DNA from: Amphiscolops sp. MND2022
Lineage: Eukaryota
Reading direction: 5' to 3'
Assembly: GCA_964187785.1 (NCBI GenBank)
Contig: OZ076409.1
Coordinates: 17,672,001 to 17,736,000 of the forward strand
Length of the DNA: 64,000 nt
Under the pieces are notes generated by a model, which saw only the letters and a program-made list of their open reading frames with translations, searched no databases and was not told where the DNA came from. Made by a program: the position numbers and the translations under genes. Positions within the stretch are counted from its first letter, which is position 1. Each line of letters opens with the position of its first letter. Below are positions 1 to 44,928 of this stretch, in pieces.

Positions 1-80
1 TGTGTCGGTACTAGTTTTGTTGTAATTTTTGATTTGGGTGTTATCGACGTCTGAGTTGCTAGGGTGTGTAGTTTTTCGAC

Positions 81-1040
81 ATGTTGGTTGTGATTCGCCT
101 GTGTGTTTCAGTTGTTGCAAAGTGTCCTCGTTTGTGTTCTGCTGGACGAGATCGGAACTTGTGGTTCGAGCAGGAGTTGGCTGTTTTCCTTCGAGAGTTA
201 TTGTGTCTGGTTGTCGAACCCTCATCGTTACCACCTGATTTTGAAGTCCTCGCCGTGTTGAAATTGCGACTGGGCGAGAGTAAGCCTGTTGACAAGGCCC
301 GGTTTCAAGTGCTGTTCGGCCAGTATTTCCGCTTCGACGTGGTCAACCAGAAGCCTTTCTTTTATAAAGAAGTGCAGAATTTCCTCAGGACTGTGTGCGA
401 GGCTTGTATTGGCGATTATGACCAAGGGTGGGTTAAGCACCTCAGCTTGTTGCCGCTGGATCCTTATGCTATTCAGTCGGTGTCAATGGATCGGCTGACG
501 GACATCCTTGTGGGTACACTTTCTGTCCTCAGTTTTGGAGATCTATGCAGAGGAGACCATGGTGCCATCATCTTACAGCAGTATCGCGAGGTAGTCAACT
601 ACTTCAAGCATCGATGGGAGTCCAATGCTTCGGTGGTGCCAGTTATTGACGATGCCATGTCTTTGTGGTTGTCATATCCTTCGTGGGACCGGTGCCAAGA
701 ATTCCGGGGCATTGTGGATATTCTTTTTGTGGGAATGCTCCATGATTCGTATGCTGCTTATTTTCAAGATGTAGGAGGCACGGCCCTCGATGACAGTATC
801 ATGCTGTCAAGTTTGAACATTATACGAAGCTGGATGTCGAGTGGTTTCGGCGGGCACTCTCGACGCTCGATGATTGGTTTCGTTAGACACTGTAGCACTA
901 CAGACATGCAGGTTTCTCGGTTAACCGATGAAGGCAGAGCTATTCCTTGGGACCAATTGGTTAAGAGGGGGATTGACGAACTACTTGGGCGCTGTGTCAC
1001 TGTTCTGGAGACGACTGGTAGTCTACCTACTCGCCCATGA
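81..1040 (+). CDS. Antisense accessory ORF (319 aa, unknown function) in the 3' internal region of the Gypsy element, convergent with pol
   Basis: Uninterrupted 319-codon ORF with protein-like composition. Its stop is 12 bp from the pol stop at 1053. The opposite strand has only short ORFs here, so it is not a shadow of pol. No recognisable domain. Confidence 0.65.
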   Translation: MLVVIRLCVSVVAKCPRLCSAGRDRNLWFEQELAVFLRELLCLVVEPSSLPPDFEVLAVLKLRLGESKPVDKARFQVLFGQYFRFDVVNQKPFFYKEVQNFLRTVCEACIGDYDQGWVKHLSLLPLDPYAIQSVSMDRLTDILVGTLSVLSFGDLCRGDHGAIILQQYREVVNYFKHRWESNASVVPVIDDAMSLWLSYPSWDRCQEFRGIVDILFVGMLHDSYAAYFQDVGGTALDDSIMLSSLNIIRSWMSSGFGGHSRRSMIGFVRHCSTTDMQVSRLTDEGRAIPWDQLVKRGIDELLGRCVTVLETTGSLPTRP

Positions 1041-1052
1041 GGGATGGGTGTT

Positions 1053-4000
1053 TTATAGGTTTCTGTTTTTCAGAAGTAACTGTTGAAGTGAAGGCGTTCC
1101 ATGTAATTCATGCATTAGGAAATCAGGGTACGTGGTAGGTTTTGGATTGTGTCTGAGCCCGTATCGAGACATGGTGTGTCGTGATGGCGCTGGAGGGCGG
1201 TCATTTGTTTGGTGTTCAGAATTGTTCATGCTAGCATTATCCGGTTGTGGTTCTTGTGTTTCAGCTTGGCTTTCAGGTATGGAGATGTTTTGATCAGATT
1301 CTATGTTTTGCCGTTCGTAGTAGATCATTCCATTGTCTGCGTGTAACTCTTCGAAGTTTGATTGTTCAGGTAATGCTTGTTGTGGCTGTTCACGGACATG
1401 ACCGGGTAGGTTATTGTCAAATAACTCCTGTTCGTTGAGGGCGTCGGGATCTTCGAAATATTGTGATGCATTGTCTTGAATGTCTTCGATTGGTGCGTTT
1501 GGCGTGATTGGGCGAAGCGTCATTCTGTGAACGCATTGGGTGCGAAGAGTGCCAATCTTACGTATGATGTAATTTGAATTTGACAAGACTTTGACCACTT
1601 TGTATGGGCCTTCCCACTTGAATTCCTTGAATGGAATTTTTTCAGATTGCTGAGACAGTTTTTTGTTTAGCAGGAAGGTGAAATCATTCACTTTCAGAGG
1701 TGAAGCTTGCGCTTTTCGATCGTAGTAATTCTTGTATTTGTGAAAGGCTTCGATTATGTTGTCATGTGTTTGTTGGAATTTTTTGTTCATGTTATCTAGT
1801 ATTCCAGTGACGTCAGTAGTGTTACGTTGTTCGGTTAATGGATTGCCAAATTTGACGTCAAGGGCATTGAACGGGACACGTCCGTGGAAAATTTCAGTGG
1901 GTGTGCATCGGATAGCCTGGTGGTAGGTTGTGTTATGGGCCATTACGGCCATGTTGACGTATTTGTGCCATTGTGGTGAATCAGCTGAGATGTTGATTTT
2001 GAGGATTTGTTTCAGTTTTTGATGGGAACGTTCAACCATCCCAATCGTTTGTGCGTGTTTTACAGAGGCATGTTCGATTTTTATACCGGCAGACTCCATC
2101 AGGAAGTTGAGCAGTTGAGATGTGAATGTCGTTCCCTTATCAGTTAAGATTGTTTTGGGTACATACGATGGCTGCGTAAAGATTTGCATGAGTGCTTCCA
2201 CGACCGACTTTGTGTCTGGTTTACGGATTGGTATTGCGAAGTGGTACCTAGAAAAGTAGTCGCATGCAGTGAGTATGTGTGTGAATCCGTTGGATGGTGG
2301 GAGTTCACCGACTAAGTCAATTTCTAGTATGTCTTCTGGTCCGTTGCAGGGGTCGTATATTTGTTGAAGTGGTGGTGTGATTGCAGCTTTTCGGATTGGT
2401 TTTGAGCGGATGCAGTCCTGGCAGTTCGAGACGTATTGCAGTACCAGTTCGGAGAAGTTTGGTGAGTAGTACCTTTTACGCAGTTCATGGAGCGTTACAG
2501 CCAGGGTGACCTTGTAGAGGGTCATCGTGCAGGGATTGAATGATTTTTCGAATGGTTTCAGGGGGAGTGACAATTTGTTTACACTTAATTTTACCTGTAC
2601 CATCAAAAAAATTCCTGTACAAAACGTTGTTCACTACTGCAAGTCTTTTTTGTTTTTAACTAGTTTTTGGAAAAACTGACTTTCAAAGTTCACATGATTA
2701 GGAAGGGTTTCCTTTTGGTTCAAAACTCTAATCATGCGTTGGATGTCAAGGTTTACGTGTTGATCCTGGATGATTTGAAACTCCCCATTGGGTCATACCT
2801 GGTTTACCACGTTGTCATGAAGCTTTCGTCTGAATCTGGTGAACTTCATCTAGTCATGTTGCCCTGTGATGATGGGTGTGATTTGATGACGGATGGTTTC
2901 TATCCTCTCGAGAAACTGTCCACTCGATTCGTTGCTGCACATGGGAACCTGGTCCAGGATGGCGTTGATGGCTTCATTTTGTTTGGTGGTGGTAGTGTGT
3001 TGGTCATCAGGTATGTATTCTTCTTCTTCTTCGTCCTGCTTGGGTGTTCTTGATGCCAGGTCGATCTCGACGTGGAAGACTGGTATCTCGTCGTTGAGTT
3101 CGAGGTGGATTCTTTCCTCTGGTCGTATGTCAAGACGAGACAGGTAGTCTGCAGCAGGGTTCTCAGTTCCCGGAACATGGGCAAGTACGAATTCGAATTG
3201 GAGCGTCTGATCGCAGTAATTCCATAGCTTCGGGGGAATCCGTTTAGACTGAAAAAATCGGGTCAGTGCTTTATTGTCCGTCATTACTATTGTTGGTTTT
3301 TTGACACCCCAGAGTATGTGTGCGAATTCATCGAATGCGAAATGCATCGCCAGGAATTCCTTTGCGTACATTGTTAGGGACATTTGGCCTTCCGTGAATC
3401 GTTGGGATCCAAATGATACTGGAGCGTACGTCTTCAGTGGTCCATCGTTTGTTTCGGTATAGTATCAGGAGGACATATCCTGCCGCATGCTCGCTGGCGT
3501 CGCACATTATAACAAGCTGTTTATCGGGTAACGGCAGACGCAGCGAAAGCTTCGCAGCTTTGGCAAGATTTTCGTTAATCTCGAAGATGATGTCCTTGTG
3601 TTGCTGGGTCAACTGGAATTTGACGTCTTTTTGGAGTAGTTTGTACAGTGGGGTGAGTTTTTCTGCTAGGCGTGGTATGCACTGCCTGTAGAACTGGACA
3701 AACCCGATGTACCTTTGGAGGGTTTGATCGATGTGGGCAATTTGATCTTCTTGAGGAAGTCGTCGATCTTGTCTTCAAGTGGGGCGACACCCTTTGATGT
3801 GATGCTTCTCCCGAGGAAATCAATCTGTGGGTGGCCAAACGCACATTTTGACATCGACAATTTCAGTCCTGCTTTTTGGATTTGTTGAAACACGGCTTCA
3901 ATGTTTGACAGTAGCTCATCTACAGTGTGGGCAGCAATTCCAATGTCGTCGACATATTGGGCACATTTATCCGCTTCCACCAGTGCATCAACGTTTTCTC

Positions 4001-5835
4001 GCACCGTGCTGTTGAATGCTGATAGGGATCGGTTGAGTCCTTGTGCCAGTCGTAGATAAGCAAAAGTTCGACTTCCAAAATTAAATGCCAAGAGTTGTAT
4101 GGATTGTTCATCCGCCATCTGCAAACAGTGGTACGCCTGCGAGCAATCCAGCTTGCAGAAGTACTTCTTCCCTGCCATGTGCTGGGCGGCGTCGGCGATG
4201 GTGGTGACTGGATGATTATGCTGGTTGTAATCATTTTTCAAGAGGTGATTGATTCTGCGCAGGTCTACAAGAATGCGAAGTTTCCCATTGGGTTTGCGCT
4301 GAGCAAATAATGGTGAGGAATACTTGCTGTACGGCAACGTCGTGATGATCCCGTACTCTTGCATCAGCGCTAGTTCGACGAGCAGGTCATCTTTGAGGTT
4401 GGTGGGTGTAGGTAAGCTCTGCGCGTAGACTGGTTCATCATGCTTCGGAGTGAGTTTGATTTAGAAGTCAGTATTGATGCCTATGTCGAGGCGGTGTCTG
4501 GCGAATACATTGTTGTACTTCACAAGGAGGTTCTCAATCTGTTGTTGTTCGTGCTCATTCAGGATTGAGTTTTCCCATTTGAAGTTAGCAAGGAACTCCT
4601 TGCGCTGTTGGTCGTCTGCTGTTGGGTCCAGTTTCTCTTCTTCACGGAGTTGAGTGATTTCGTCATATATCCGCCTTTCAATGCGGTTCAGCTTGGACGG
4701 GTCATCACATGTCTCCGGGGTTGGGAACCATCTGCGGTTGGTTTCAGTGCCGGGTTCCTGGAACAGCTGGATTAGTACGTTGTTGGCTTCGTCCGGGTAT
4801 TTGGTTATTAGTGTCATATGTTCGTTTGACATCGGTTGTAGGTTTTTTGCTTGGTTGGGAGTCATTATCTTGAAGGTGGCCACTGTCGTGTTCGGGTTGA
4901 GGGTAATTGTATGGCAGGTGAGGTTGGTGATCTGGACATGGCTTTTCTTCTCAGTGATTTGCGTTAGGGCGGGGGACACCAGTAATTGTGTCTTCCTTTC
5001 AAAGGCATGAATCCACTGTGCCCTGGATTGTCCCGAGGTCGATTTCTGCTAGGACGGGGACAATGATTTGGTGGTCCGGTTGTATGACTGTTTACTGTGT
5101 CGTTCGTAATTCGATCATCTGGATTTTGTATCGTCCTCTTTCTGGTTTTAGTTGCAGGGTAATGTCCGGGAACTTGACTACGTTGTTGGCAAGGTCAAGT
5201 GTCACTGAATACTTTTTGAAAAATGACATTCCGATCAAGATGTTACCCATGGTTGGAAGAATCATGAAGGTTTCCTCGAATACTTTACCTCCGATGAAAA
5301 ATCGAAGTAGTACCTGTTTCCGGACTGGGACGATGCTTCCGTTTGCGATTTGGACTTTGAAGTCCGGTGCTGGGTACTCTTCGAGAAGTGCGGCTGGGTG
5401 TGCAGACAGGATTCGTCTGAGTTCGTCCTCTGACATTGCACTTCTTATTGCTCCTGTGTCGAGGAGTCCGTGGTTCTCGTATTCTCGGAATTGCAATGGG
5501 ACGTACAACATCTTGTCCTTTTTGTTTAATTGGAGTGTTGCTGTTAACACCTGGATCGCCACGTCTTTCTTTTGGTTCATTGTTTTCCTTGTACAGTCAG
5601 TCGTTGTAGTCGAGTTAGAGTGCTGTTTGTCTTCTGTCGTTTGTAAGTTCACGTCCGTTGGTTCGGAGGGAGGGTTCACTTTGTTATTGGTTGTTTCGTG
5701 GGTAGTTGTAGTCATATGTTTCTGATCCTGCCGAAGATCAGTTGCCCGGTTTTTGTAGTTCTTTGTTTAGTAGTATTTGTTCATGTTGCGCACTTTGTTA
5801 TTGTAATAGTCAGTCGGATGACGTGGCTTCAGAAG
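1053..5835 (-). pseudogene. pol: Gypsy pol (PR-RT-RNaseH-IN), disrupted by several stops and frameshifts
   Basis: PR LLDTGA...ILIGMSF (5092-5715); RT SSPLFAQRKPNGKLRILVDLRRIN, KLDCSQAY, YVDDI (3666-4364); RNase H CDASEHAAGYVL, KEFLA, TDNKAL, NPAADYLSR (2850-3612); IN CQDC, IDLVG, TDKG, GMVERSH, WEGPYKV (1053-2606). Split over several frames, with in-frame TAA near 5767 and at 4461. Confidence 0.95.
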
Positions 5836-5841
5836 TTTTTT
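5835..5841 (-). promoter_or_regulatory. Putative -1 ribosomal frameshift heptamer A AAA AAC at the gag-pol junction
   Basis: gag ends CCA AAA AAC TTC TGA. The -1 frame (KLLKPRHPTDYYNNKVRN...) is the frame of the protease ORF, with one intervening TAA. Confidence 0.75.
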
Positions 5842-7029
5842 GGCTGGCTGGATGATCCTTCGGTGAATTCCTGTTGGTAGTAGTCGTCACTGGTTTGCTG
5901 TTGTTGGTCCCCTGGTGCAAGTTCGTTCATTTCATTTGCTGGGTAGGGGTAGTTGTGTGCTCTGCGGAAGTCACGTCGGAAGTCCCTGTTTTCAGTTGTG
6001 GTTTGCCTATTGTATGGCACGCTTCCGTAGGCGGAGGTTTGGGGTATTCTGTAACGGCAGTCTTTTGCGGAGTGACCTGTATAACCGCAAATTTGGCAGA
6101 CCAGTTTGGCATTGTATTTTGGTTGTGTTTCTGCGTTGTTGTTTTGCTGTTCGGGCTTTTTCTGTGCTTGTGAGTTGTTGTTGCCCGCTGCTTCGTCACG
6201 CAGTCGTTTTCGGCACTCAGCCCATTTGTGTCCGTAAATTGCGCAGTATCTGCAATTGCCATCGAATTTCTTTTTGATTGTTGGTCGTTCGTTTTCGTTT
6301 CTTTTCTGAACAACTGGCTTGTTTGGGACTTCTTGTGTCTGGATAGCTTGGTTGAACGGTTGGAGGAGTTGTTGATTTGGTAGTAACTGGGCATATTGGT
6401 ATCTTCTCTGGACGAATGTTTTGATGTCTTCAATGCTGGCATTGTGTTTTCCTGCAATTGCCAGTTCGTTTTGGAGCTGGATCGGTAATTTGGCAAACAG
6501 GAAGGTCTGGACAATTCCCTGTGCCTTTTCGCCGTAGGCTTGTTTGGCAATCTTTTTGTAATTGGCGAGGAAGGTACTGAATGACTCGGTAGTCGGATCG
6601 TATCGTAGCTGGTCGAATTTGAACTTCGAGACTTCTGAGAGTTCTTCCTTGGCGTATTCTTTTTTGAATGCCGTCAGTATATCTCTCAGTGTCGTTTCTG
6701 TTGTGATTGTCAAGGTTTGCCAAAACTCAATTGCGTCATCCCTGAGAAGACTCTGAAAGTAGTTGAGTTTTTGTTCTTCAGTGAGTTTGTGGGCATGTGG
6801 TCGTAAGTGGTTGAGCAATAAATGCTCGAATTCATTGTATTTGTCTCGATTTCCCTTGAATAGAAGTACTTGGGTCTGCAGGATTTTTGGTTGAGTCAAG
6901 GTTTCCCCCATTGCACTGCGGAGATGGTGGATTTCCGTCATCATATCTGCTATCTGCGGAAAACTTTCGTCACTCCTTGGTGTTCCGCTGGGTGGTGTTG
7001 TTCGAGATCCTGGTGGACGTGGGTTCGGG

Positions 7030-7042
7030 ACTCCTGTCACCA
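7030..7042 (-). promoter_or_regulatory. Primer-binding site TGGTGACAGGAGT (tRNA-Leu-like)
   Basis: Directly follows the LTR end ...CCGACA. One mismatch from the complement of a typical tRNA-Leu 3' end (TGGTGTCAGGAGT), compared from memory. Confidence 0.65.
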
Positions 7043-8177
7043 TGTCGGAACGACTGTCAGTACTTGTAGTTGCTGAATTTAGTCTGTTCCCCTCTCCATT
7101 AACGGAGGCAAACTGATTAGTTAATATAAGGACTATGCTGGTAAGGTCTCCGATTTATCTATTTATCTCATTAAATCGTTGGTCAATGCTATAATTACTG
7201 CTATTTTGTTGTCTAGTTAATACGTCGTCAGAGTCAAGGTCTACGATTTGGTCTCTGGATAAGATATCAGGGAAACTGGATTCACTTTCATTATCGCTTG
7301 ATCTGTCCATGTTTTCAGCTTCTAATTGTCTATTTTGACTACTTTGAGATCTAGTAGTTACCATGAAAAGTACGAAAGTTCTAAGTTGAATTGAAATGCG
7401 TTAATGTAATGCTAAGGATTGATAATTCGTAAGTAAGATAGTAGGCAACTTGTTCTATCAATAGTTACAATTCGTGAGTGACTTCGGTTTTACCCGATTG
7501 TGTAACTATAAAGGTGTGTCAGCACCTTTTTTTAGCCAATGACATTCGATTTACTAATTGCTATTTAATTGCACTTGACGACTGGTGGTTACAGCCGTGA
7601 CGGGTGATAATCGGCGTTTAATTATTCATGTTTGATCTAGTATGACCGCAAGCACCAGTCATTTTAGCACGCAATTGTCTCAATTACCTCTTAAACTGAG
7701 GCTTTACTACCGTGTATCCTTATCATCATGGTAACTGATTCAATTATCGTTTGGAGGTTAATTACTACAAGGCATTGTACAAATTGCTGATATAAATGAA
7801 TGAAATGTTGTTGTTATGAATGATCGAGTATTCTGGTAATACTTTACATGTAATATAAAAAATGGATGAAGAATGATTAAATGATGAACTATCACGATAG
7901 CTGATGACTGATTGTTCCAGTCTTATATGTGAGAATCACTTATGATGACTGAATATTTCAGTCTTGGTTTCTAACGATGCACAATAACATGAATGAATTT
8001 AGTATTGATGACTGTTAGTTCCAGTTGTTATATTTTCAACTGTATTGTTCGAGGAATAAATTACTGCAATGTATTTTCATGATGATCTGTATTTTAGGGA
8101 GTTTGATGTATGAATTAATATTTTAGAGTTCGTTTAGTTCCTTCATGCTTGGCGGGCATGACATCCGCCCTGCTACA
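7043..8177 (-). repeat. 5' LTR (~1135 bp) of the Gypsy element
   Basis: Minus strand begins TGTAGCAGG and ends CCGACA (TG...CA), then the PBS. The start resembles the TSD-delimited solo LTR (TGTCGCAGG plus a short GC hairpin). The partner LTR is not in the window, so boundaries are inferred. Confidence 0.75.
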
Positions 8178-20613: not shown

Positions 20614-20767
20614 AGTTAATGAAATTTTAAAGCGAGAGATAATCGATGGTTCATGAAACCAGCAGAAATTTTGAAGACTTCTCCCAGCTGTCAAAACGAG
20701 AAGTCTTCAAGATTTTTGCTGGTTTCATGAACCTTCGATTATCTCTCTCTTCAAAATTTCAGTAACT
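20614..20767. repeat. Imperfect inverted repeat (~70-bp arms, short loop)
   Basis: GAGAGATAATCGATGGTTCATGAAACCAGCAGAAATTTTGAAGACTTCTC is mirrored by GAGAAGTCTTCAAGATTTTTGCTGGTTTCATGAACCTTCGATTATCTCTC. Confidence 0.9.
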
Positions 20768-20773
20768 GAGCAG

Positions 20774-20969
20774 TGTTGGATGAATTAGATTGTTGAAACA
20801 ATTTTTGAACTGAGCCATGAAAGTTATCGCTTAGTGAAATTTTTGATGAGAAACAATCAAATGTAAGAAATATTTCTTACATTTGATTGTTTCTCATCAA
20901 AAATTTCACTAAGCGATAACTTTCAGGGCTCAGTTCAAAAATTGTTTCAACAATCTAATTCATCCAACA
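20774..20969. repeat. Near-perfect 196-bp palindrome with no spacer
   Basis: 98-bp arms centred on AAGAAAT|ATTTCTT (20871/20872); one mismatch seen. Confidence 0.95.
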
Positions 20970-22496
20970 TTGTGCATTTTTTTTGAAAGCAGGAAATCAC
21001 TCCAGCAACTACGTGCATTGATATTAATTTCAATGTTATTTACCTAGGCTTTTTGCCCACAGCCAATTAAAAAACATAATTATATTTTAATCTCGTGCAT
21101 TCCTTTTTTGTTCCCCCGAGGACCATCCCTCAAAATCCCGATTTTGTCAGCTCTGAACCCTTTTGGAGACATAGTTTGGGAATGCATTACCATACATTAT
21201 ACAATAGCACCAGACAAGTGAATTCAGGAAAAAATGGCCTATTTTTTTGACACCACGTGAAAATGATTCACAAAAACACAAACACATGAAATAATTGCCT
21301 ATGGCAGGAAATTCATAACTCACGAATGCTAAAATTGCTTTTTAAAGGTTTGAAATCGCCATTAACATTTACAGCGAAAACAAGCCATAAAACACTTCAG
21401 CGACAAGTAAGGAAATTAAAATTCTTCTTTATCTACTACCTGGTAACCGACGAAAGCGCATTTTCATGTCATTTCTTTTATAGCTACCGCTTTCAACCCG
21501 TTTTTAATCACCAAGATTTTTTATAGACTTCCTTCTTTACGTGATCATGCTCAAATGCAACCAATCACATTAATTAGGCGTCCTTTCTTCGAACTTAAGG
21601 AGCCTGCAGAAATGCCAGAGCTCCTAGGAATTGAATTAATTTCCCCTTCCTCCAACGACCTTAAATTGGGTTAATTTTTCAGTCGATTTATCGTTTTAGA
21701 GGAAGCTGGTCTTTTAAATCACGGATACAACAAAACTCAACAAGTTTTGAAATTTCTAGTATAATTCATACACAATTTTCTGTGTTATTTTTTTGTCCAA
21801 TTCTTGCTTACAATTTTGTTTTGATTATTCTTTTGTTGAATTTTCTGATGATTTTCAAAAATTGAACAATATTAGACCAAGAAATGAATTAGGTCTTAAT
21901 CAGGTTAAGTCTGAACCTAGTCAGAAAACCTAGAATTGCATTACTAAAAGACTCCCCAGGGGGGCAAACAACTCGAAAAAGAAGTTTTTTATTTGGATGA
22001 TATAAGTACGAAATACATTCGATGGAGTACGCGAATGGGACTATTGAATCTACTGGTTGAGCACCTTGGAACCTTGCATGATTCAGAGAAACTTTTCAAA
22101 TAAAAGTCTTGATAATTTACTACATACAATAGGCTGGCTGGCTAACTTTATTGACGTCATGTCAAATTCAAATTCTTGTCAGTTCTTGTAAAATTTGGTA
22201 AAGTTGAAGAACATCATTCAGTGAAATGCAGTGGTCGGGAACTTCAGTTTGTAGACTGTTAGATTGTAAAGTTCGGATAATGAACTGCAGACTTTTTGGT
22301 CTTCGTGTTGTTTGAAAAACATGACATTGCAAAAATCTTTCTTGCTGTTTCAGACTTCTATGTAGGTAGGCCTTCTTCGATATAGATTCCGAAAAACTTC
22401 AAGAAGTTTTTATGCGAACATGTTTGCTGTAGAAAATCCGTTCGCGGGCCAAAACACCCTGAATTTTAGTTTACTTGGAGCTGTGTTTGATGATTT

Positions 22497-32600: not shown

Positions 32601-32689
32601 ATATTTACCATTCCCATGCCTTTGTTGGGGGTGTATTTGCAAACCCATGTTAAGGCGTTTAATGCTTTTTGTACTTCATGACGACCTAA

Positions 32690-33213
32690 CCCTTGTTGAA
32701 ACTGCCTTAACTTTTTGCATGTATTTTATTGTTGGCAGCAACTTTTGTTCTGATTTTCTAAAACTCTTACGGAAACTTTCATGTATTTAACTTCTATCAA
32801 GTTGCTTGAAAGATTCACAAAAGTATTGGCGGCAATTTTAAGCCTTGAAGTTTTGCAGGTTTTATTAAGCAGCAGTTATCATTTTAAAAGCAAAGCAGTT
32901 GCTTTCGGATGGACCGCTAAATTAGTGCAAAACAACTTCAGTCGCGTAATGGACAGCAACTTAGCCTCATGTTCAACGCGCTATTTGAGAAGTGGTGATC
33001 ACGTCAGATGAGTAGTTGAGGAAACAAAGTGTGGATACCAAATGATCGTGTCGGTAATGTAGTGGAATGTGTTTTCAAATTTAATTGCAGTAGTGGAAAA
33101 TGCAGCGTAATGATTTACCATCCGAAGTTCACTGAATTTTCAATTTTTTTAAAAACAAACAGCCTGCAAACAGGCCTGCAGCATGTAAAAAGTTTCTGTA
33201 GTTTCAACTAGGA
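32690..33213 (+). mobile_element. Non-autonomous DNA transposon (CMC/EnSpm-like), family B copy 1
   Basis: TIR CCCTTGTTGAAACT...AGTTTCAACTAGG. Its reverse complement aligns along its length with 43600-44148. Confidence 0.8.
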
Positions 33214-36137
33214 AAGTTACTGTAAATTACAGGGATAAAACAGAGTAAAAAAATATTCTCTTCTTGCTCTTTGACATTCATTTTGCCCAAAAGTTTCCAA
33301 TTTTTCTGTTCCTCCAAGCGAGACTTTTTGAAACTCTCTGAGGTAATTTTAATGAGCCTGAGAAGACAAAAATCTTGTATACTTTTTGCTGACAATTATC
33401 TTCTACTGCTCAGTTTCTTTCCGATTCGGTCCCATCAGATACTCTATGGTAACAAAAAGCTTCAGACAGTTAATATCACAATTGAAGGCGCATTTTCAGA
33501 GCACGCATATGCCAAAAAATTCTCAGAGTCCCAAAAACTACCGATCAAACAAATCTTCCTTGATCAATTTTGAAGCCTTTCTTTACCTTTCACATTTACC
33601 ACTCTCTGGAAATGATCTCTTGAAAAATGAACAGTCACACTGTGGTAATTCCATTGAAACAATATTTTATGGAGTAAAAAGTGAATGATTTGCATTTTGT
33701 GATAATTCTGATGTGTAAATTCCAAAGGGGGACCTCTTCTGGAAAAGTGTTAGTCAAAGGTTAGAGATCCGATTCCAAGGTGCAAAATTCTTTGATACGA
33801 ACAACGGTTTTCGAGTTTTCGAGTTTTTGCATGCTAAATTTCGGAATATATCAAGCGTAATTAAAGCCAAGTGTTATAACTTCAGTTTGCTCCTATGAAC
33901 TTTAGGTCAATAGCTTATATAAAAAATAACATAAGGTTTGAAATGAATTTTACAGAAGTCGAGTATCTTCAGCTTTTTGGTAACCCATATGAAAGCCTTT
34001 CTTCAAGGATGAATTTTGGTTGTACCTTTAAAGCAATCCAAGATTGCAAAAATCTATTCAAATAAAGAACTGCTTGAAAGATTTGCCGATTGCTTCCATT
34101 TTGGAGTTGGGAATATTTGAAAGATCCACTTTTGAAGCTTTTATGATTTTAAACATCAATTATATAGGTAGCTTTTTTGAAATTTTTTGATAGTTTGTTA
34201 ATATGCAAGCAACACCTGATTGATCGTTTCTATTCAAAGACCTCAATTTGCCTTTTATAATTTGACAGAAAAAAGCTTCTAGATTGTTTTGATCCGATCT
34301 TTATCAAGTTTTCAATCAGGCATTTTGAATTTCTAAATAAACTCGATTTTGGAGAACCTTGACACTTCAAAACGTAGCTGTTTGGTTCCAGTTGTTTTAG
34401 CTGATGATCTTAGGCCACTTTTAGGATCGTAACGACTTTGATTTCGAACAATTTTCAAAACGCGAACCGTTCTTGAATTCATCTGAATTTCAACGAACTC
34501 GAGATTTTTTGACTCAAACAAATCAAGGATTTGACTAGAATTCATCCTTTTATGGAAATACATCAGATGCTAGTACTTTGAAAAACACATGACTCACGGG
34601 GACAAGTTTCCCCAAATGCCTGAAATACTCCCCACTAGACGCCGAACTATTTTTCATCTCCTCAAAATTTCCAATCAATAATCAAGCAGGCATTTTTTGT
34701 AGCACTTCCTGTGGTTCTGATGATGTATGATTGATCGATGCAATTAGCTAATTCAAAATCCTGAAAAATCAATAATTCAGCCAAGTTGGATTCGGTTTTG
34801 AGTGACATAACATGTTGAACAAACTAAATTATTCATGCCGGTGCAAAAGTGAAAGGAAGTCTGAATTTTTGCCAGTTGCAATTTGTAGGAATTTTTAATC
34901 AAAAGCATGACTGGCTCCATGACGCCCATTGCATCTTGTTTCTGCTTCTAAGGAAAATCACTGCATCTTCGATGTTTGCACTTATCTTTTCCATGATACA
35001 TCCATGTACCTTGGCGTATCCGTACAAAAGTATCCGAAACTCCATATTTGTATGTTTTGCGAGAAAACTTTTTAGCTCCCTAAAAAGAAATGTAATAAAA
35101 TAGGGATTTCCCGTTAAATTTTGAATGATCGGTGGCGCTAATTTTGTTGCAAATTAGTTCAAACTTTTATTTTTCTTCTCTAGTTATTCAGTTTCTTCAG
35201 GATTCGTTTTCTTTATCGGTTATCATGAATTTTTGGCAAAATACACAACTGTGAATTTTGTTTTCTTTCGATGGCACGAAAAAACTAAACCTTAAAATTC
35301 AATACACCATCTACTGTTCACGAAATTAATGTTATTGGGACATATACATTGTGTTTAATACCAAAAGCCTTGAAAAAAAAATATATTTTCCGTTCGGACT
35401 GACGATATTTTGGTCTTTTCATCTACTTGTCACAAAAATTCCCTCAGGATAACTTTTCCACAAAATAACCTTGAAAACTCTATGCCTCTTTGTAACAGGG
35501 GAAAATTACAGGAAACTAGCGAAGCAGGAAATTCAGAGGCAAAAGAATACGCCTAAATTTTCAAATCTACATCACTGAGAAGGTAGCAAAAAGTTGCTGC
35601 AATTTGAAACCTTTAGAGGGAGTATTATCTATATTCTTTTCTGAATCTAAAAGACAGACTCATGTCGCCACTTTTCATCAGGATGCAATAAAACGGAACT
35701 AAATGGGAGCCAAGGTGCCTTTAAGAAGGAGATTCATAACCTGCACTTAATGATTTTATAGAACAGTTTTCTACTAGTTGAGCAGAAATGTCTTCACGAA
35801 TATCGATTATTTTTGTTTCGCGTGATTGAATAACTCAGTGGACATTTGAAAAATGGACACAAATTCTTAATATGCAGACTCTTCCGCTCCTCGGATCCCT
35901 ATCGTGCTTTAAATATGAAGAATTCAAGTAAATTGGGAGACAATTTGATCCCAAAAAAACGAAAAATTTCGATTTGAAGTCACCAGTAAGGCTAATATTC
36001 TCTCCATATTCAAATACAAAACGAAAGAAGACAAAGGTAACCAAGAATAAACATGGTGCTATATTTTCGCCGTTTTATCTGGGAACATTCAGTATTAGTC
36101 AAGAGAACATTTTATATGAGAACCCAAGAACTAGTTT

Positions 36138-36433
36138 TTAGTCGGCGCTTTTAGAATAAAAGAGCCTGACTATTGCAGTCACTGTTTTTTTTCTATTTTT
36201 TTGGTTTTTCTTGAAGACAGACTGGAATGCGACGAAATTTTCGTTTAGTTTGCTCAACTAAACGAATATCTGGGAAACTCATCTAAGTTATTGCAAAGGG
36301 CCTCCTTTCATTTTTTACCTTTTACACGTAACATACAAAAACGGATGAGAATAAAGGGTCCCCTTTCTCAATTGTCTCCGGCGTTGTGAGACTTTTTCAT
36401 AAAAGTTTCTTAATGTCCTCGAAGGGTCACCCC
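36138..36433 (+). mobile_element. Helentron/DINE-1-like element 5' part, interrupted by an LTR element
   Basis: Starts TTTAGTCGGCGCTTTTAG...GACTA and carries the family core (GGCGTTGTGAGACTTTT, AAGGGTC). Confidence 0.6.
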
Positions 36434-37450
36434 TGTGAAATGCAGAGGCCAAACTGCCAATCACCAATTGCAGAACTGTCATAGTCTGAGAGCTGTCTAG
36501 TACTTAGGTACAAACAATTTCTAATTACTTCAATTATGCCTTGACCTGTTTATGTTAATGTGTTGTTGTATACCATTATACTTTGAGGATCCCATACACC
36601 ACAGTTGAATGAAAGTTCCATATGCTACACCGTTTTAACCTTAGAAATTGCGATCTTGACATGGCGCAGTAAGCAAGATTCACATCTCTTTTCACCAGGG
36701 TACAAAACCCTTTCATCACTAAAATCAACCACCAATGACCACCACAAATATCCGATTACCCTATCGAGAGGATACCGGACTCGACAGGAAGAACAATAAG
36801 CACCCAAAGAGTGGACCGAGACATTTCGGCATTACACATAAAAGTATCTATAATGTGGATATCAAACAAATATTGACGAATGATACGGTACGAACCGACT
36901 CCTTGGTTTCGAAAGAACCAGAGATCAAGCAAGACTCTATCGGGGGCGCAGGACCGTCAGCAATTGAAATATTCACCAAGGGAGAGTTTAGGACGAACCC
37001 AGAAACTATCAAAACCGACAAACTAATACAGTTATTTCGGGAATACTCTATGCTACTTGCCCAAAAGAAATAACTACCACAGCCGTGTTTGAGCAAAACA
37101 AGAAGACCACTAGACACCAGAAGAGCATTGAAAAAAATAATAACCTCAGAAAAAGCTGCGATTTCAGACATATAAAAGAGATCTCCTGATAACGAAATTC
37201 ATCACAAGCATTACTGACAAAAAGCTTCGAGAGAAAATAATCTGTGAAAAAACCATAAATTTGGAAACAACCGTAGACTTTGTTACTCAAAACAGCTACA
37301 ACCGACGACATAAACAATCTGCTAAACCACTCGCATTGGCAAAAGACAAAGAAATAAAACAGGAACCAATCCAAAAAATCAGGAACCAATCCAAAGAAAA
37401 CACCGGGAAAAACGGAAAACACCGGAAAGAAACAACGGAATTCTCATTTT
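36434..37450 (+). mobile_element. Truncated Gypsy-like element: LTR (~36434-36661), PBS and decayed gag
   Basis: TG...GACA followed by TGGCGCAGTAAGCA (tRNA-Ser-like PBS). Gag-like fragments GAGPSAIEIFTKGEF...LIQLFREY, LPKRN and LETTVDFVTQNSYNRRHKQ. The LTR start is a guess. Confidence 0.65.
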
Positions 37451-37734
37451 TCGTTTGATATTAGATTTTCTCAATATATGTCCACCAATATATTTTTTAA
37501 TACTATGCGAATTTTTGACGTTATGTCCGAAAAAAATGCGTTCCACTAAAGTTGAGGTTTAGGTTCAAAAATACTGTGTTGTATTCGAATATTGCGCTAT
37601 GTCCGTAGTAAATTAGGCTTTACTAAGGAGGAGGCCGAGGTTCTACCATGTCGTCAAAGTTGCATAAAAAACTATGAAGCACCCACGAAGAAACGAACTC
37701 TCTGTGAAACAAATATATAAACTTGCTCTGTTTA

Positions 37735-38944
37735 CCCTGGTCATTTTCCATGGAAATCCATGGATGAAGTAGACGTTCTCAAGGATGAATCATGCGATTC
37801 TGTCAGGCATTATTATCGACAACTCGGAACTTGGTGCAAAACTCCAGAGTAATTATGGGTGACATTGTTTCAAAACGTCACTACAGACAAACAGGATAAC
37901 CAATGGTGACTTTTTTTTTGCGAAATTAACAAAGCTATTAGCATTTGTTGTATACCGTGTATAACATTTAAAAAATTGAGCAAAACGGATTCAGTTATAA
38001 CATATTTGAGCTGTAATTCTTATGGGTTTGACAAAATAAAAGTAGTTAAAAATCAAAATAATCGCTTCGCGAAATGACGTGCTGAGACATTACGTAATTG
38101 AACAGGACCCTATCTGGTTCTTAGTTACTTCTTCCAGAAAAAAAATTGAACAGAACAACCCTTTCAGTTCTATCTTTACGAGCCTCCCATGATTGACCTA
38201 TCATGCAAATCATACTGTTTTCACATATGGAAACTAGCTGGCATACAAAAAACATCAAGTGTTCATGTCATGACTTCAATATGTTCCTTGTATGACTTGA
38301 ATGTTTTCCTTGAAAGAGTTTAGTAAAACTGTGATTATTTCTAAGAAACTTTTCGAATAGGAATGACTTTCGCCAGTTAAAGCTGAAGTTGGAGCCGGAG
38401 AACGCTTCATCTTGACCTTCAGTTTCGAAACATTGATGATTTTTGTGTACGCAAACTATTGAGAGGATGCAAAAGTATTCGACGTCTTTCTATATTAGCA
38501 TTAACTCTTTTGTTGCAGCTATCTCCCTTTTCAGGGAAATTTGTGCTTCGAACGAGATCAATTATGAAAAACTCAGCATCAGATACACCAAAATGGTAAT
38601 TGTGATGGTATTCTTACGTTTTTGATAAATATTGGTTAAGAAGCAGCCAACAACAAGTTCATCAACCTGGGCGTTAATTGGCTACGTTATGCTAATTTGC
38701 CATGTATATGAAACATTCAGTTCATAAAAGGATTATAACATGGGAACTTTTCGCTCCATAGCAGGAACATAGTATGGAAAACGCGTTTATCATAGAATGA
38801 CCATAGTGTGATCATTTTTGAATTGCATGGATTTGTTTTTTTGTTTGTGGGGTCTTGTATGACTGAGCTGTTTCACTGTTTCCATGAATCACCATATGAC
38901 GTTTCATGATATGAATGTTTTTTTTGTATGGAGGTTAACCCGGT
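37735..38944. mobile_element. Decayed CCC...GGG-type element(s) rich in CATG repeats; related ends at ~25130-25340 and 48478-48615
   Basis: CCCTGGTCA...CCATGGAAATCCATGG start. The TGTATGGAGGT(T/C)AACCCGG end is shared with 25321-25339. Confidence 0.4.
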
Positions 38945-39405
38945 TTCAAAGGTTTTTTCAATTTTTTTTACACTATGGTCCCTTTTTTAGAAAAAGACAT
39001 TGATAATTTTGAAATGACGTCGTACTTCCAGGATTTCTAGCCGTTTCTAGTTTGGTTGTTTCTAAATTTCAATTCCAGACGTCGGATGTCATAGTCCACT
39101 TCTTGAACGCAGTTTTACATCACATAAAAGTACATTCCTATACATACGTGCAAGTTTGACTAGTAAATGAAATAGTATTGATAACAAAAATATTTTAACA
39201 AGTACTTATTCGCAAAAAATATCCCAACGCCATTTTCAGTTGAAATATTTCCCTATATGATCCTAATGACCAAGAGATATTATTTTTGCTATTATCTTCA
39301 GCAACTCATATTGATTCACAAAACTAAAGGTTGCAAAGCTTTTTCGTGGGATTTCCTTGTGCCTTCCTGAGAAAACGGAAAAAGGGCTGTACCAATGCGC
39401 TTCTT

Positions 39406-40449
39406 CCCTAAGTTACAAAAATCACAACTCTTGCAAAATTCTTAAAAGAATTCTTGTAAGATGTTGTAAGAAAATGCATTTTTAGAATCTAACTCTTGCA
39501 AAAATCTTGCAAGATTTGCATTTTTCTGCTCTGAATGTTACAAAAAATGCATAAATCCGACCATTTTTTTTGCATTTCCTGCCTCAAAAAAATTGAACGG
39601 CTGCAAAAGAAAACTATCTGTACTCGAAAAATGACACAATTGCCCATATTAGAGCATCTAGATTTTATATTATCGGAATGCCTTATTTGCATCATTAGCA
39701 TTGTTTGATGTTATATTGTTGTAAAGCTTTCGCTTACAACATTAAAGCCCTGCGTGGGGTCAGTGCCTCTGAGAGAGCAATGTCCTCCATTCTCAGCAGT
39801 CTCATGACTAGTTGAAATGGGCTGGAGAAGAAATGAAACCGATAGTTGAATTTTGCTAGAATTTTCAGGGTTTTTATAGTTTTCAATATGACATTGCACA
39901 GGTGGTTTTGTAGTATTTTTACTGATTTTCTCCATCACAGTAGCTGACAGCAGGTTCGGGTTAGAACCGTTAGAAAGCCCTTGAAATGTATTTTCAATTG
40001 GTATCATGTTCATATTCCTATCATCATTAGCTGAAGAGTTCTCGGAGTTTTTGTCCGGAGTTTCATAGCTGGAATACGTTATAGTAATTTCTGGGGTAAA
40101 ATTGCATGTAAAATTTTCTTGCTCAAAATTAACAATTTGGAGCCTTTTGCTGGGATCCTGGGACAGTTTGTGCATTGTAAACGGCAACTGTGGCTGTTGT
40201 TGCTGGTAGTTTGATGATTTTTGAAGTTTTGGTCGAATTAACACATCACATTTTTTGTAAAAATTTCTTACCAAAAAAATGCATTTTTTGCAAAAATGTT
40301 ATCAGAATCTTGTAAGAAATGTTCGACATTGTAACAAATTTGCAAAATTTGCGATTCTTGTACAAACTTGTAAGATTCTTGCAAGAAATGCAAAGCTGAC
40401 GAGAATTTCGGAAGAATTTTGCAAGATTTGTGATTCTTGTAACCTAGGG
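39406..40449 (-). mobile_element. Non-autonomous DNA transposon (CMC/EnSpm-like), family A copy 1
   Basis: TIRs CCCTAAGTTACAAAAATCACAA / TTGTGATTCTTGTAACCTAGGG, subterminal TCTTGCAAGA repeats, 2-bp TSD TT. Confidence 0.85.
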
Positions 40450-42155
40450 TTGTTGATATTGAATAACTAAAATCGATTGAAAATTTTTCAGCAATTGATT
40501 GATTCTATTAGCCCAAGTATTGATTATTAATTTAGCGCATATGGTGGAGAGTTCCAAAAAAATTTTCCACGAATAAATGAAGGTTGAATTTTTCCAAAAC
40601 TCAAGACAAAATAAATCACGACTGCTCTCCATTTCAGTTTATCAATGCATCGATCAAACATTTGTTTTCTTGATTTTTTTTCTAATCCTAAAATTATTGC
40701 TCTTGGTTAAAATTCTAGTTTTTTCTTCTGTAATCTCGATTTAAATGGCCTTAAGGATTGAAATTCCAACTGCTTGAACTATTCTCATTTGAGAAAAAAA
40801 TAGATGCCGGTACGCAGCTTCATTTCCTCTTCAGACAGAAAAACATCGCTTTGTTTTCATAATTAATTTGAAACATTCTTCATCTTCTTAAAAGAAGCCA
40901 AGACAACACAGGCTCATTTCTAATTCATTTCAATACCATAGAGAGAACGATATGTTATATATACCGTTGAGAAGACACTGAGCTTAGAAAATAATCTAAT
41001 TTTAAAAAGTGGAATTTGGAGGCAGGAGCCGACTAAAGAAGGAATTGAATCACGGATTTTTTTCAGAGCGAACATTCTCAGTTGCTATCATAAATGTTGT
41101 TGTAAAATGCATGGATCATGCATGCAAGTTTTTCGTGTGATGAGTCACCTGCGATTTTCAGTTTACTTGCAAAAAAACCATCGATGTATCCTGTAAAATT
41201 TTAAACGCAACCTGAGGAAAGGTTGTTAGTGAGATTGCAACATCTGAGATGGCTCAAAAATAGTATTTTTGGGCAATTATTCGTCGATTTTTCGAGAAAA
41301 GGTGTCAAGAAACTGTTTGAATTACGTCATGATCAAAAGAATATGTCTGACAATCTATCTGCAAGGTACGTTCAGTATAGAAATCTGACTGGCCTTGAAA
41401 TTATAATAATGGTTATTGGATTCCGCCCGGCTACAGAAATATTTTCGTCAGAGATTTCTGAAGGTTCAAAATAATATTAAACTTCCTAAAATATAATAAA
41501 TGTGACATGAAATCCAATATAAATGTACCTGGATCGAAGGTGCTACTAATATTTCCAAAACGGTAGAACAACAATTTTACTTATTCTTACCCTCAAGATT
41601 GGTTGCATGGAAAAAGTGCAATTATGTATCATGGTGCAGTCATGTCTTTCATCCATTAATTCTTAAATGATAGTGAGTGAAAAGTGACTATCAATATGAA
41701 TAGTTTAAAAAACCCAAAAGTTTCGATATTTATGTTTGATTTTAATGCTTCATGCATATTTTTTCATGATTCAGAAACAGCGCTGTGGAAGGTTACGTAA
41801 CTATAAAGGAAGGCAACGTGTTGAAGATTTTTCTTGAAACCTTTTTTTTTGTTTTTAACATTTTTTTGAAATGTGAATTGACGATGTAAATGAACTCAGC
41901 ATATTTGAAAAAAAGTTTTCTAGCAAACAATGCTGTTTGCTCAAAAATTATATTTTATCATTTGCTTATACATATTTTGCAAGTTATTGCTCCACATATA
42001 TCAACTTCTGGTATTCCAAAACTACCAATTTTTCCCATTTATAATAAGCAACCGTTTTCATCGGAGACAGAATTAATTGAGTGCGCCGAATATTTGTATG
42101 ATGGCTAGCATTTCGATCTGCAGAATCTTCAAAATCATTATTGAAAGTGTCAGTG

Positions 42156-43061
42156 CCCTAGGTTACAAGAATCACAAATCTTGCTAAATTCTTCCGAAAT
42201 TATTGCCAACTTTACATTTCTCACAAGAATTTTACAAGTTTGTACAAAAATCGCAAATTTTGCAAATTTGTTACATTTTTTTACAAGACTCCGATAATAC
42301 TTTTGCAAAAAATGCATTTTTCGTAAGAAATGCTTCCAAAAAATGTGATATGTTATGTCGACCAAAATTTTAAAAATCATCAAACTACCAGCAACAACAG
42401 CCACAGTTGCCGTTTACAATGTACAGACTTCTCAGGATCCTAGCAAAAGGGTGAAAATGGTCAATTTTGAGCAAGAAGAAATTACATGCAATTTTACCCC
42501 AAAAATTACTATAACGTATTCCGGTAACCCACCACCAAACAACAATGCATTAATTTACACCAATGCAAAGGCAGCGTCTGACAGCTCAAATTACGACTCA
42601 ATGGGTAACTCTGGTTCAAAAATCGTTTCAAGCGACACACCCAATCTTGGAATCGAGCAAGTAAAGGGAAAAAACCCACTTCAGGAAAGTCAGTCTGAAA
42701 ACTATAATTCTACATCTCCAAGTGGTGAAAGTTCTGGAGCTATTACTGTTGCGAACTAAATGCATCGTACTACGCTTCTCAATTCTAGATGTTCTAGAGT
42801 AGAGAAGCTTTAATATGGGCAATTGTGTCATTTTTCCCGTTCAGATCGGTTTTTTAGCAGCCGTTTAATTTTTTGAGGCTGAAAATGCCATTTTTGTAAG
42901 AAATATGTCAGATTTATGCATTTTTTGTAAGATTCTGAGCAGAAAATGCAAATCTTGCAAGATTTTTGCAAGAGTTAGTTTCTAAAAATTCATTTTCTTA
43001 CAAGATCTTACAAGAATTCATGTAAGAATTTTGCAAGAGTTGTGATTTTTGTAACTTAGGG
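42156..43061 (+). mobile_element. Non-autonomous DNA transposon (CMC/EnSpm-like), family A copy 2, inverted relative to copy 1
   Basis: TIRs CCCTAGGTTACAAGAATCACAA / TTGTGATTTTTGTAACTTAGGG, 2-bp TSD TG. Confidence 0.85.
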
Positions 43062-43128
43062 TGCAAAAGCGAAACATCCATGATGTTCGGTTTCAAAAAT
43101 CGATGATTTTTACTGTTTTTTTTGTTAG

Positions 43129-43354
43129 ATTAAAAAATCTAGAGGAAGTGAAACGAGGGAGAGACGATAGGTGGTACGTAGTCAACTGGCCCCCCAATCA
43201 GGACTACGCGGAGATCATCTACAGACGCAAAGTGAGGGGCGCCTTCTACCAGAAGATGGAGTTGCAGCATTTCCCCGTCGACGTGCAGGCAATCAGTGTA
43301 CAGGTGAACACGGACCTCGACAACTCAGAAATATCACTCAAGGAGGATGACCAG
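43129..43354 (+). CDS. Exon of Cys-less pLGIC containing the beta6-beta7 (Pro) loop
   Basis: Poly-T TTAG| acceptor and CAG|GTAACT donor. The phase-2 join gives IWEPRLRLKN. YRRKVRGAFYQKMELQHFPVDVQAISVQV has the FPxDxQ motif without flanking cysteines. Confidence 0.9.
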
Positions 43355-43599
43355 GTAACTGATGACGTCACTGAATTTATAATGATTTCAACAGTTTGTT
43401 TGATCGTACGATACAAATGTTTGGGTGTTTGCAGATCGTCAGGGTTGTTCCAGTAAAACAAAATATAGTTCTCATTTTCGGTTCACAATTGAGCGCGTTT
43501 GAACCTTATTTGGGTTGTTCGTCGTACCTAAAATAGAAATAATAGTATATGTGGACGTAATCCTAAATAAATAGGGCGACCTAAATAAATAGAGCAGTA

Positions 43600-44148
43600 C
43601 CCTAGTTGAGACTGCAGGAACTTTTTACATGCTGCAGGCCTGCATGCAGGGTAATTGTTTATAAAACCTAGAAAATTCAGGGTAATTCAGGTGGTAAATC
43701 TTGTAGAATTACACTGCATTTTCCACTACTGCATTTAAATTTGAAAATAGATACAACATCATCACCGACACGACCTTATTGTATTTACAATTTGCTTTCT
43801 CAACTACTCATCTGATGTGATCACCGCGTCTCAAATAGGACGCTAAACATGACGGTATATTGCAGTTTATTAGGTGACTGAAGTAATTTTGCATTAAAAT
43901 GGCTGTTAAACTGAGAGCAATTTATTTGCTTTTAAAATTAGAACTGCTTCTTAATGAAACCTGCAAAACTTCAAGGCGTAAAATTGCCGCCAAAACTTTG
44001 ATGAATCTTTCAAGCAGCTTGATAAAAGTCGAATACAACAGGTAAATATTTTCTCATTAAAGTTTCCGTAAGAGTTTTAGAAAATCATAATAAAAGTTGC
44101 TGGCAACATTAAAGTACATGCAAAAAGTTCAAGAAGTTTCAACAAGGG
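43600..44148 (-). mobile_element. Non-autonomous DNA transposon (CMC/EnSpm-like), family B copy 2
   Basis: CCCTAGTTGAGACT...AGTTTCAACAAGGG, 2-bp TSD TA. Inverted homolog of 32690-33213. Confidence 0.82.
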
Positions 44149-44928
44149 TAGGGACAGTCGGACTAGAAGTGGACCTAAATTAATAACCAGTATAGCGCAC
44201 AGTGGACCAATTAGTGATGTCACAGGTATGAATGAAGTCAAGAGGTAATAAACCGGACTTATCAAGTATCGTCTAGTATAGTTAGAAAAGGGGTATTGAA
44301 GCAATGAGGACATGAGTCTGACAGTAACGTATTGCAATCTATTCGGTTAAGAAATGTAATGTAACGTGTTAAAAATACTTGTTTGAAGACACTCCTTCTG
44401 TCGCCTATCTGTCGCATTTCAATTTGCAGTCGGCGCTTTTTGAAGAAAACAACCAACTACAGCAGTTGTTTTTTTAAGAACATCGAACTGACAGACTTCT
44501 ATGAGCAATTCTAAGCAACTACCAAGTTCTAACTTAGTAACCTATAACTGCCAATTGACCTACAGGTTGAAAACGGGTTTCTTGAGGTCGGAGAAGCAGG
44601 AGTACATGGGTTCGAGTCTCGCATTAAACCGAATTTATTAATGCTTGCAAAAGTAAGGGGGAGACAAAAAGGGGAATTTTTGGCATTATGCGACTTTTTT
44701 CTGATTTTTTAAAAACCGAAATGTTCAGCAGAAACCTCATGCCCTAATGTTCAGCAGAAGCAAAACGTTCTTCGAGCATAGATGACCACTTTAGATGTTT
44801 TCGGCATCATGCGACAAACCGAAATTTAAAAACACGCTGAATTTATATGAAAAATTTGCCAAACTTTGTTTTTCTGTAGAGAAAAATCGTTTTCGGAGCC
44901 TTGAGGGTGAACTCTTTGTTCATTTCTG

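Follow-up and report, generated by a model that had tools for sequence, protein, structure and literature searches.

Open reading frames on the strand opposite pol are known from plant Gypsy elements (Grande gene23, RIRE2, Retand TRP28/PF04195) and from the Botrytis element Boty; their origin and role are stated to be unknown, they show no similarity to other elements, and it has been urged that antisense as well as spliced transcripts be looked for (PMC7264820). The accessible part of PMC11963269 likewise describes TRP28 as a protein of unknown origin without similarity outside elements. A precedent for transposase-derived regulators that lack catalytic residues is provided by the accessible text of a recent preprint, where TnpA of Spm is described as derived from a transposase and devoid of the catalytic core (bioRxiv 10.64898/2026.08.24.746577); that text contains no mention of retrotransposons. 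The locus presented here is an animal Gypsy element in which an antisense frame of 319 aa had been noticed. What had been noticed is only the final exon, in truncated form, of an antisense gene that is conserved in a Gypsy clade and for which we predict seven exons.

The carrier element and its truncated antisense frame

The window, i.e. the whole stretch of DNA that was analysed, comprises 64,000 nucleotides (G000:C1:17672001-17736000). Its + strand contains, opposite pol, a stop-free frame of 319 aa from ATG81 to TGA1040, as described in a sequence-only reading of this DNA, and the pol frame ends at 1053 on the - strand, leaving a gap of 12 bp. No Pfam domain matches the frame; its neighbours are integrase, RNase H, reverse transcriptase, protease and gag in Gypsy order. 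The Pfam matches establish gag followed by pol in the order PR-RT-RH-IN, and a polypurine tract precedes the 3' LTR. The LTRs have TG...CA ends and are 97.9% identical, with 23 substitutions in 1,129 aligned columns. Because the second LTR was located upstream of the window and the 5-bp target-site duplication is the same on both sides, the frame lies inside one complete element, in agreement with the initial assignment. The reported disruption of gag and pol was also found, both being broken into several frames. The features of the element are the following:

C1:17667254, upstream of the window: start of the 3' LTR
G000:C1:17669196-17669430, + strand, upstream of the window: predicted exon 1
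C1:17669593-17669730, + strand, upstream of the window: predicted exon 2
C1:17669908-17670276, + strand, upstream of the window: predicted exon 3
C1:17670442-17671004, + strand, upstream of the window: predicted exon 4, with the zinc finger
C1:17671145-17671633, + strand: predicted exon 5, with an in-frame stop in the window copy
C1:17671753-17671963, + strand, upstream of the window: predicted exon 6
1..111, + strand: 3' part of predicted intron 6, containing ATG81 and ending in a T-rich stretch followed by its CAG acceptor (109-111)
112..1036, + strand: predicted exon 7, cut short in the window copy; helical, probably with homology to hAT-type transposases in their insertion domain and C-terminal part
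1036..1037: junction of a ~2.1-kb internal deletion; ~117 codons and nearly the whole spacer are gone, including its conserved structured block
1037..1052, + strand: spacer remnant, source of the accidental TGA (1038-1040) and of the 12-bp gap
1053..5766, - strand: pol with protease, reverse transcriptase, RNase H and integrase; frameshifts and stops in the window copy
5829..7376, - strand: gag with a zinc knuckle, first ~110 codons within the LTR; interrupted by a stop in the window copy
7043..8163, - strand: 5' LTR (TG...CA), aligned to the 3' LTR
8164..8168: 5-bp target-site duplication; its partner adjoins the 3' LTR and is thus located upstream of the window

The start of gag is located inside the LTR (window 7043-7376), so that the position of the primer site falls within the gag frame. 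Elsewhere the window harbors a 108-nt near-perfect palindrome (20614-20979), long nested inverted repeats around ~41 kb (32689-44149) and a ~710-bp tandem repeat (60647-62365). Upstream of the element in L031 (164-2402), short minus-strand ORFs resemble the genes of another mobile element.

The comparison with sister copies documents that the ends of the 319-aa frame are peculiar to this copy. Two sisters align to window positions 1-1036 and resume at 1037 after 2,084 or 2,157 extra bases, by which the window copy is accordingly short. Its TGA at 1038-1040 is spacer sequence joined by this deletion, which thus explains both the stop and the 12-bp gap. The sister frames extend ~117 codons further, into a basic, low-complexity tail, and are separated from pol by a spacer of ~1.8 kb. 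The distance between frame and integrase amounts to 2,454-2,904 nt in 99 of the 104 paired copies presented below; the 523 nt of the window copy are the shortest value of all. At the other end, ATG81 is situated inside predicted intron 6, and conservation starts past the acceptor at 109-111, which is kept in 24/24 copies. The window copy has a second lesion, the in-frame stop of predicted exon 5, at a position upstream of the window. The description of the frame as intact and tail-to-tail with integrase therefore applies to an artefact of the deletion, and the proposed formation of dsRNA with pol loses the 12-bp gap on which it was built. An antisense transcript need not overlap pol, because AATAAA is present in the spacer of 5/5 close lineages checked, which is weak evidence since these lineages are similar there; its complementarity to the full-length genomic RNA would persist in any case.

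A predicted gene of seven exons

The 3.7 kb between the 3' LTR and the frame contain six further conserved blocks on the + strand. We compared 24 copies from lineages with ~40-96% identity and found GT/AG at 280 of 288 predicted splice sites, the eight misses comprising one GC donor and seven single-copy sites that are possibly mutated or misaligned, whereas only 5 of 181 other intronic GT/AG dinucleotides are shared by 13 or more of the 14 lineages. The exon phases are compatible. Exon 6 has a length of 211 nt in 24/24 copies, exon 4 of 563 nt in 21/24 and exon 5 of 489 nt in 20/24, while intron lengths vary; predicted intron 6, which starts just upstream of the window, measures 148 nt. In almost every comparison, conservation is higher in the exons than in the introns next to them. 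On the basis of these alignments the antisense gene is very likely spliced. Its predicted introns would survive reverse transcription because the gene is oriented backwards; in sense orientation, they would be removed from the genomic RNA by splicing and then lost.

The order LTR, exons, spacer and pol was found in 18 of 22 stretches and in 8 of 10 newly fetched ones, and it is shared by lineages that are merely ~40% identical in exon 7. The stretches without this standard order retain exons 3-7, but they are interrupted or have no cognate pol. The summed exon lengths predict a product of ~1,090 aa. The tail encoded by the last exon is basic and contains NLS-like runs. An env-like gene was considered and rejected, given the antisense orientation and the lack of a clear membrane segment in eight last-exon proteins (maximal 19-residue hydropathy 0.98-1.67).

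Conserved non-coding signals

The interval from the polypurine tract to exon 1 contains promoter-like words that are kept in 6/6 and 5/6 lineages (L031:6480-6540), and we take them to resemble CRE/ATF and ETS sites. The earlier proposal of an antisense promoter near the 3' LTR thus gains conserved candidate words at the appropriate place, the promoter itself being a prediction. A conserved palindromic hexamer is located ~120 nt before the predicted start (L031 ~6975).

The spacer comprises a non-coding block of ~130 nt that is nearly invariant in 14/14 lineages (L034:5468-5618) and deleted in the window copy; 506 candidates for it were found in the genome. On the strand of the genomic RNA the block can be folded into hairpins in which 98% of cells are paired and covariation is seen for 6 of 40 pairs, a paired fraction that is inflated by the G/U-rich strand and a covariation count that is reached by 36 of 500 shuffles. 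A search of four loci against Rfam returned no match at E<=1. The block is possibly an export or packaging signal. In two lineages it is flanked by an inverted pair of 23-24 nt with a distance of 520 nt. A second conserved element is a 36-nt word directly after the donor of intron 3, which is kept in 14/14 lineages and ends in a second AG (L031:8177-8215); it possibly represents a micro-intron, an alternative acceptor or an autoregulatory site.

Linkage to integrase and purifying selection

At least 1,113 candidates for the last exon are present in the genome, from which 125 matches were scored. An integrase in antisense orientation lies within 6 kb of 104 of them and one in sense orientation of none (0/125), as expected for the predicted consistent position downstream of integrase on the opposite strand. 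Conversely, 103 of 117 close integrase matches are paired with the antisense gene. Among the 21 matches without integrase pairing, at least two have pol in the fetched loci. The possibility of a non-autonomous lineage with the antisense gene alone was discarded, as pol is present in 3/5 newly fetched copies of this lineage and the others are interrupted. The trees of gene and integrase retained five rows and contain no supported branch. Tandem clusters of last-exon matches on the same strand are found at C13:45783680-45791820 (four copies) and C3:56944802-56990771 (three copies) of G000, and several lineages comprise many near-identical copies.

Of the 125 scored matches, 100 contain no stop, and the suspected purifying selection is well documented. 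Between the lineage of the window and the next one, dN/dS is 0.04 in exon 4, 0.08 in exon 5, 0.05 in exon 6 and 0.06 in the core of exon 7 (dS 1.3-1.7), compared with 0.13 in the tail of exon 7, 0.15 in exon 3, 0.58 in the short exon 2 and 0.06 in integrase; in most of the deeper lineage pairs the silent sites are saturated. In the family of the window (25 of 29 loci plus the window copy, four having been left out for want of an anchor word), shared variants exhibit a pN/pS of 0.09, and singletons one of 0.56 with nine stops. As far as can be judged from sequence variation, the pattern is that of a gene selected during replication of the element and decaying after insertion. Neutrality of the antisense gene is refuted by dN/dS and pN/pS.

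Mosaic elements

The comparison of L034/L035 with L046/L047 and of L040/L041 with L044/L045 revealed pol segments that are 99-100% identical between lineages whose LTRs differ by 17-27%, implying recent recombination between them. The DNA of integrase and RNase H is 100% identical in one pair of lineages with antisense genes of 64-66% identity, and 99-100% identical in a second pair with antisense genes of 74-76% identity. The identity of the antisense gene follows LTR and gag, not pol. The apparent co-segregation of gene and LTR would be explained by linkage across the LTR as well as by a specificity of the protein for its LTR. Copies of one lineage followed by an inverted, partly deleted antisense gene of another lineage are present in L063, L070 and L238-L241.

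Probable ancestry in a hAT-type transposase

The sequence-only reading had proposed a single ORF of unknown family. Not only is the frame the last exon of a larger predicted gene, but an ancestry in hAT transposases can be detected. The 44 close relatives of the last exon are all unnamed and without a Pfam domain; a profile search expanded them to 199, remote ones included. Three relatives have best identities in the genome of <=48%, 28% and 27% and probably stem from other organisms. No Pfam family scores above its own cut-off in the antisense gene, and the zf-BED match of exon 4 (E 0.035) is below it. The finger of exon 4 together with a C-terminal transposase motif led to 80 metagenome frames, in the following referred to as the transposase family; in its strict form, the motif was found neither in the genome nor in viral contigs. 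The family has no Pfam hAT match, but it resembles Ac-type hATs in a profile comparison (94.7%), and its structure model (pLDDT 81) matches the fold of Hermes with an E value of 1.2e-10. It has 66 matches in the same genome, many of them broken. These resident relatives exhibit uninterrupted frames of 250-430 codons and a remote similarity to the antisense gene, whose introns may be later gains.

The profile comparisons covered exons 4-7 and placed their matches in colinear order along the transposase family. Exon 7 with its distant kin matches residues 439-641 (94.6%, E 6.6e-8, 192 columns), a score that depends on distant proteins known as proteins without genomic context; the close alignment without remote proteins reaches 74-84%. 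The finger of exon 4 corresponds to residues 33-67 (E 2.8e-4, weak probability of 41%), exon 5 to residues 178-263 at the start of the RNase H fold (E 1.8e-3, weak probability of 15%), and exon 6 has a colinear, non-significant match to residues 360-381 (E 0.54). The profile scores of 37, 32 and 71 contrast with maxima of 19, 19 and 21 in 20 block-shuffles, and reversed as well as Ac-type templates score at most 1.8%. Between the exons and the Ac-type hATs of this genome no match was obtained. The histidines of the exon 4 finger, by its profile match an N-terminal finger of the BED type, are kept in 13/13 and 12/13 rows.

Searches of the profiles of exons 7, 5 and 4 and of the transposase against the sequences of solved structures returned nothing significant, and the suggested fold check of the last exon was uninformative, its model being too poor (mean pLDDT 41.6) and without a fold match. 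Atlas matches, to be taken as leads only, reach 0.77 for one protein, and 0.90 (hypothetical) and 0.89 (ORC3) for a distant one. We found no longer, fused or pre-spliced relative of the antisense gene, and in 3/3 lineages scanned no inverted-repeat pair that is common to them and brackets the gene. Taken together, the profile evidence indicates that the antisense gene is very probably descended from a hAT transposase.

Probable loss of the catalytic residues

The catalytic positions are near-invariant within the transposase family. In the antisense gene, the position of the first D aligns to a gap, the column of the second D contains a hydrophobic residue and an acid in 0/15 rows, and the column of the catalytic E has E in 1/21 rows and mostly arginine. 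No cysteine of a CxxH motif was found in columns 100-107 of exon 5, a position that is extrapolated, and no RW motif in columns 5-9 of exon 6. Judging from these alignments, it is highly likely that the protein is catalytically dead. Acids are present two columns from the aligned catalytic E in 19/21 rows and, in roughly half of them, flank the column of the second D; conceivably the active site is shifted, which leaves a small doubt on the loss of catalysis. We do not classify the gene as a hAT transposase, since D-D-E, CxxH, RW and shared inverted repeats were not found at the places examined; it is likely derived from one.

Proposed function and alternatives

The reading that we favour, with slightly more doubt than belief, is that a dead hAT-derived nuclear DNA-binding protein regulates the transcription of its own element. 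The gene would go back to a hAT insertion in reverse orientation close to the 3' end of an ancestral Gypsy element; it would have lost its ends and its catalysis, and then been retained. It would be transcribed from its own promoter adjoining the polypurine tract, and the AATAAA of the spacer could end the transcript before pol. The protein would bind the DNA of the element via its zinc finger and act as a transactivator or anti-silencer comparable to Spm TnpA. A nuclear DNA-binding function is suggested by the retained zinc finger, the basic tail and the lack of a clear membrane segment. A bolder version, which we offer tentatively and with doubt clearly prevailing, regards the gene as a class II enzyme domesticated by a class I element. 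The dead, intron-rich hAT transposase would have become a sequence-specific factor that transactivates the LTR of its own element or counteracts its silencing, carried since before the split at ~70% integrase identity and probably across species, with gene-plus-LTR modules as specificity types between which pol is freely swapped.

The same gene of the same origin could instead act in integration. The dead transposase would then be a scaffold, bound to the ends of the cDNA or to chromatin at the target, by which the pre-integration complex reaches the nucleus or safe sites. The binding of DNA ends by hAT transposases as oligomers, known from the Hermes structures, and the basic NLS-like tail fit this role, and nuclear import has been proposed for the plant antisense ORFs (PMC7264820). 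It is nevertheless rather unlikely, as the pairing of near-identical integrases with strongly diverged antisense genes, presented above, argues against a tight co-adaptation. Less likely again is a Rev-like RNA-binding protein that recognizes the spacer block of the genomic RNA or its own word in intron 3 and controls export, packaging or splicing. The structured block and the intron 3 word, each conserved in 14 lineages, and a weak similarity between the finger of one related transposase and zf-U1 are in its favour. Yet the near-invariance of the block contrasts with a divergence of the protein down to ~40% identity, which better fits a host or Gag ligand, transposase ancestry suggests DNA, and both the pairing and the covariation of the block are affected by the reservations given above.

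A still-active transposase or nuclease, which would make this a hybrid element that also moves or cuts as DNA, would account for the apparent retention of all hAT regions, in order and at near-constant length, and for the acid near the catalytic E. We consider it very improbable in view of the aligned D1, D2 and E columns without a conserved acid, the missing CxxH (at its extrapolated position) and RW motifs, the lack of shared bracketing inverted repeats and the LTR ends and 5-bp duplication of the window element. It is equally improbable that the protein blocks competing hAT transposons in a dominant-negative manner, or that the gene is otherwise beneficial for the host: the relics of related transposases in the same genome could have been its targets, but their similarity to the gene is only remote, and the gene is conserved across replicating lineages, whereas its copies decay after insertion as seen from the singleton variants. 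The two lesions of the window copy and the regulation of some elements by antisense RNAs (PMC7264820) would be compatible with a neutral passenger, i.e. a decaying nested insertion, or an antisense RNA kept for silencing. The probability of this explanation is close to negligible given the low dN/dS of exons 4-7 at saturating dS and the frame-preserving exon lengths across lineages of ~40% identity.

Comparison with known systems

The antisense gene shares with hAT transposases of the Hermes fold the order of finger, RNase H start and insertion/C-terminal region. It differs by the catalytic columns that are not kept, the absence of terminal inverted repeats, ~240 extra N-terminal residues, a basic tail and its location inside an LTR element. 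The env genes of errantiviruses and Tor elements are likewise extra genes after pol in animal LTR elements, but they have sense orientation and encode membrane-anchored proteins. HTLV-1 HBZ, which is spliced, is a retroviral bZIP protein with a promoter in the 3' LTR and an unrelated sequence. Like the gene reported here in its proposed role, it is, according to the accessible part of PMC11963269, an antisense nuclear regulator encoded close to an LTR element's 3' end. The ORF3s of LTR elements from bdelloid rotifers are also extra genes after pol, for which neither a transposase nor an intron is described in the accessible part of PMC5408684. In the open literature as far as accessible (including PMC13547354 and PMC13524379; subscription journals, supplements, Repbase and Dfam lay outside the scope), we found no LTR element with an antisense gene that bears introns and derives from a hAT transposase.

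The closest resemblance in layout is to the antisense ORFs of plants, which also occupy the interval from pol to 3' LTR, oriented antisense, in most copies (PMC7264820). The Grande ORF has been shown to possess its own upstream promoter (PMC7264820), which is predicted here from conserved words. No Pfam match to TRP28 (PF04195) or another domain of plant antisense ORFs was obtained for the gene, and unlike them it has an animal host, as seen from 7 Wnt matches in the genome, six predicted introns, a product of ~1,090 aa and a traceable origin in a DNA transposon. An extra antisense gene that can be traced to a DNA transposase points to a route of nested insertion for which PMC7264820 and the accessible part of PMC11963269 contain no support. 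A reverse-transcribed element can keep a gene with six (predicted) introns if it is oriented backwards, and an ORF-based annotation would miss such a gene or report a short orphan ORF. The many diverged natural versions with exchanged pol make the specificity of the protein for its LTR testable.

The nearest functional analogues would be Spm TnpA and VANDAL VANC, accessory, sequence-specific regulators of mobile elements, a role that we infer by analogy for the antisense protein. Both serve DNA transposons of their own superfamily, whereas the gene reported here would have entered a retrotransposon from another class. If the reading as a regulator is true, transposase-derived control factors extend from the DNA transposons of plants to the retroelements of animals.
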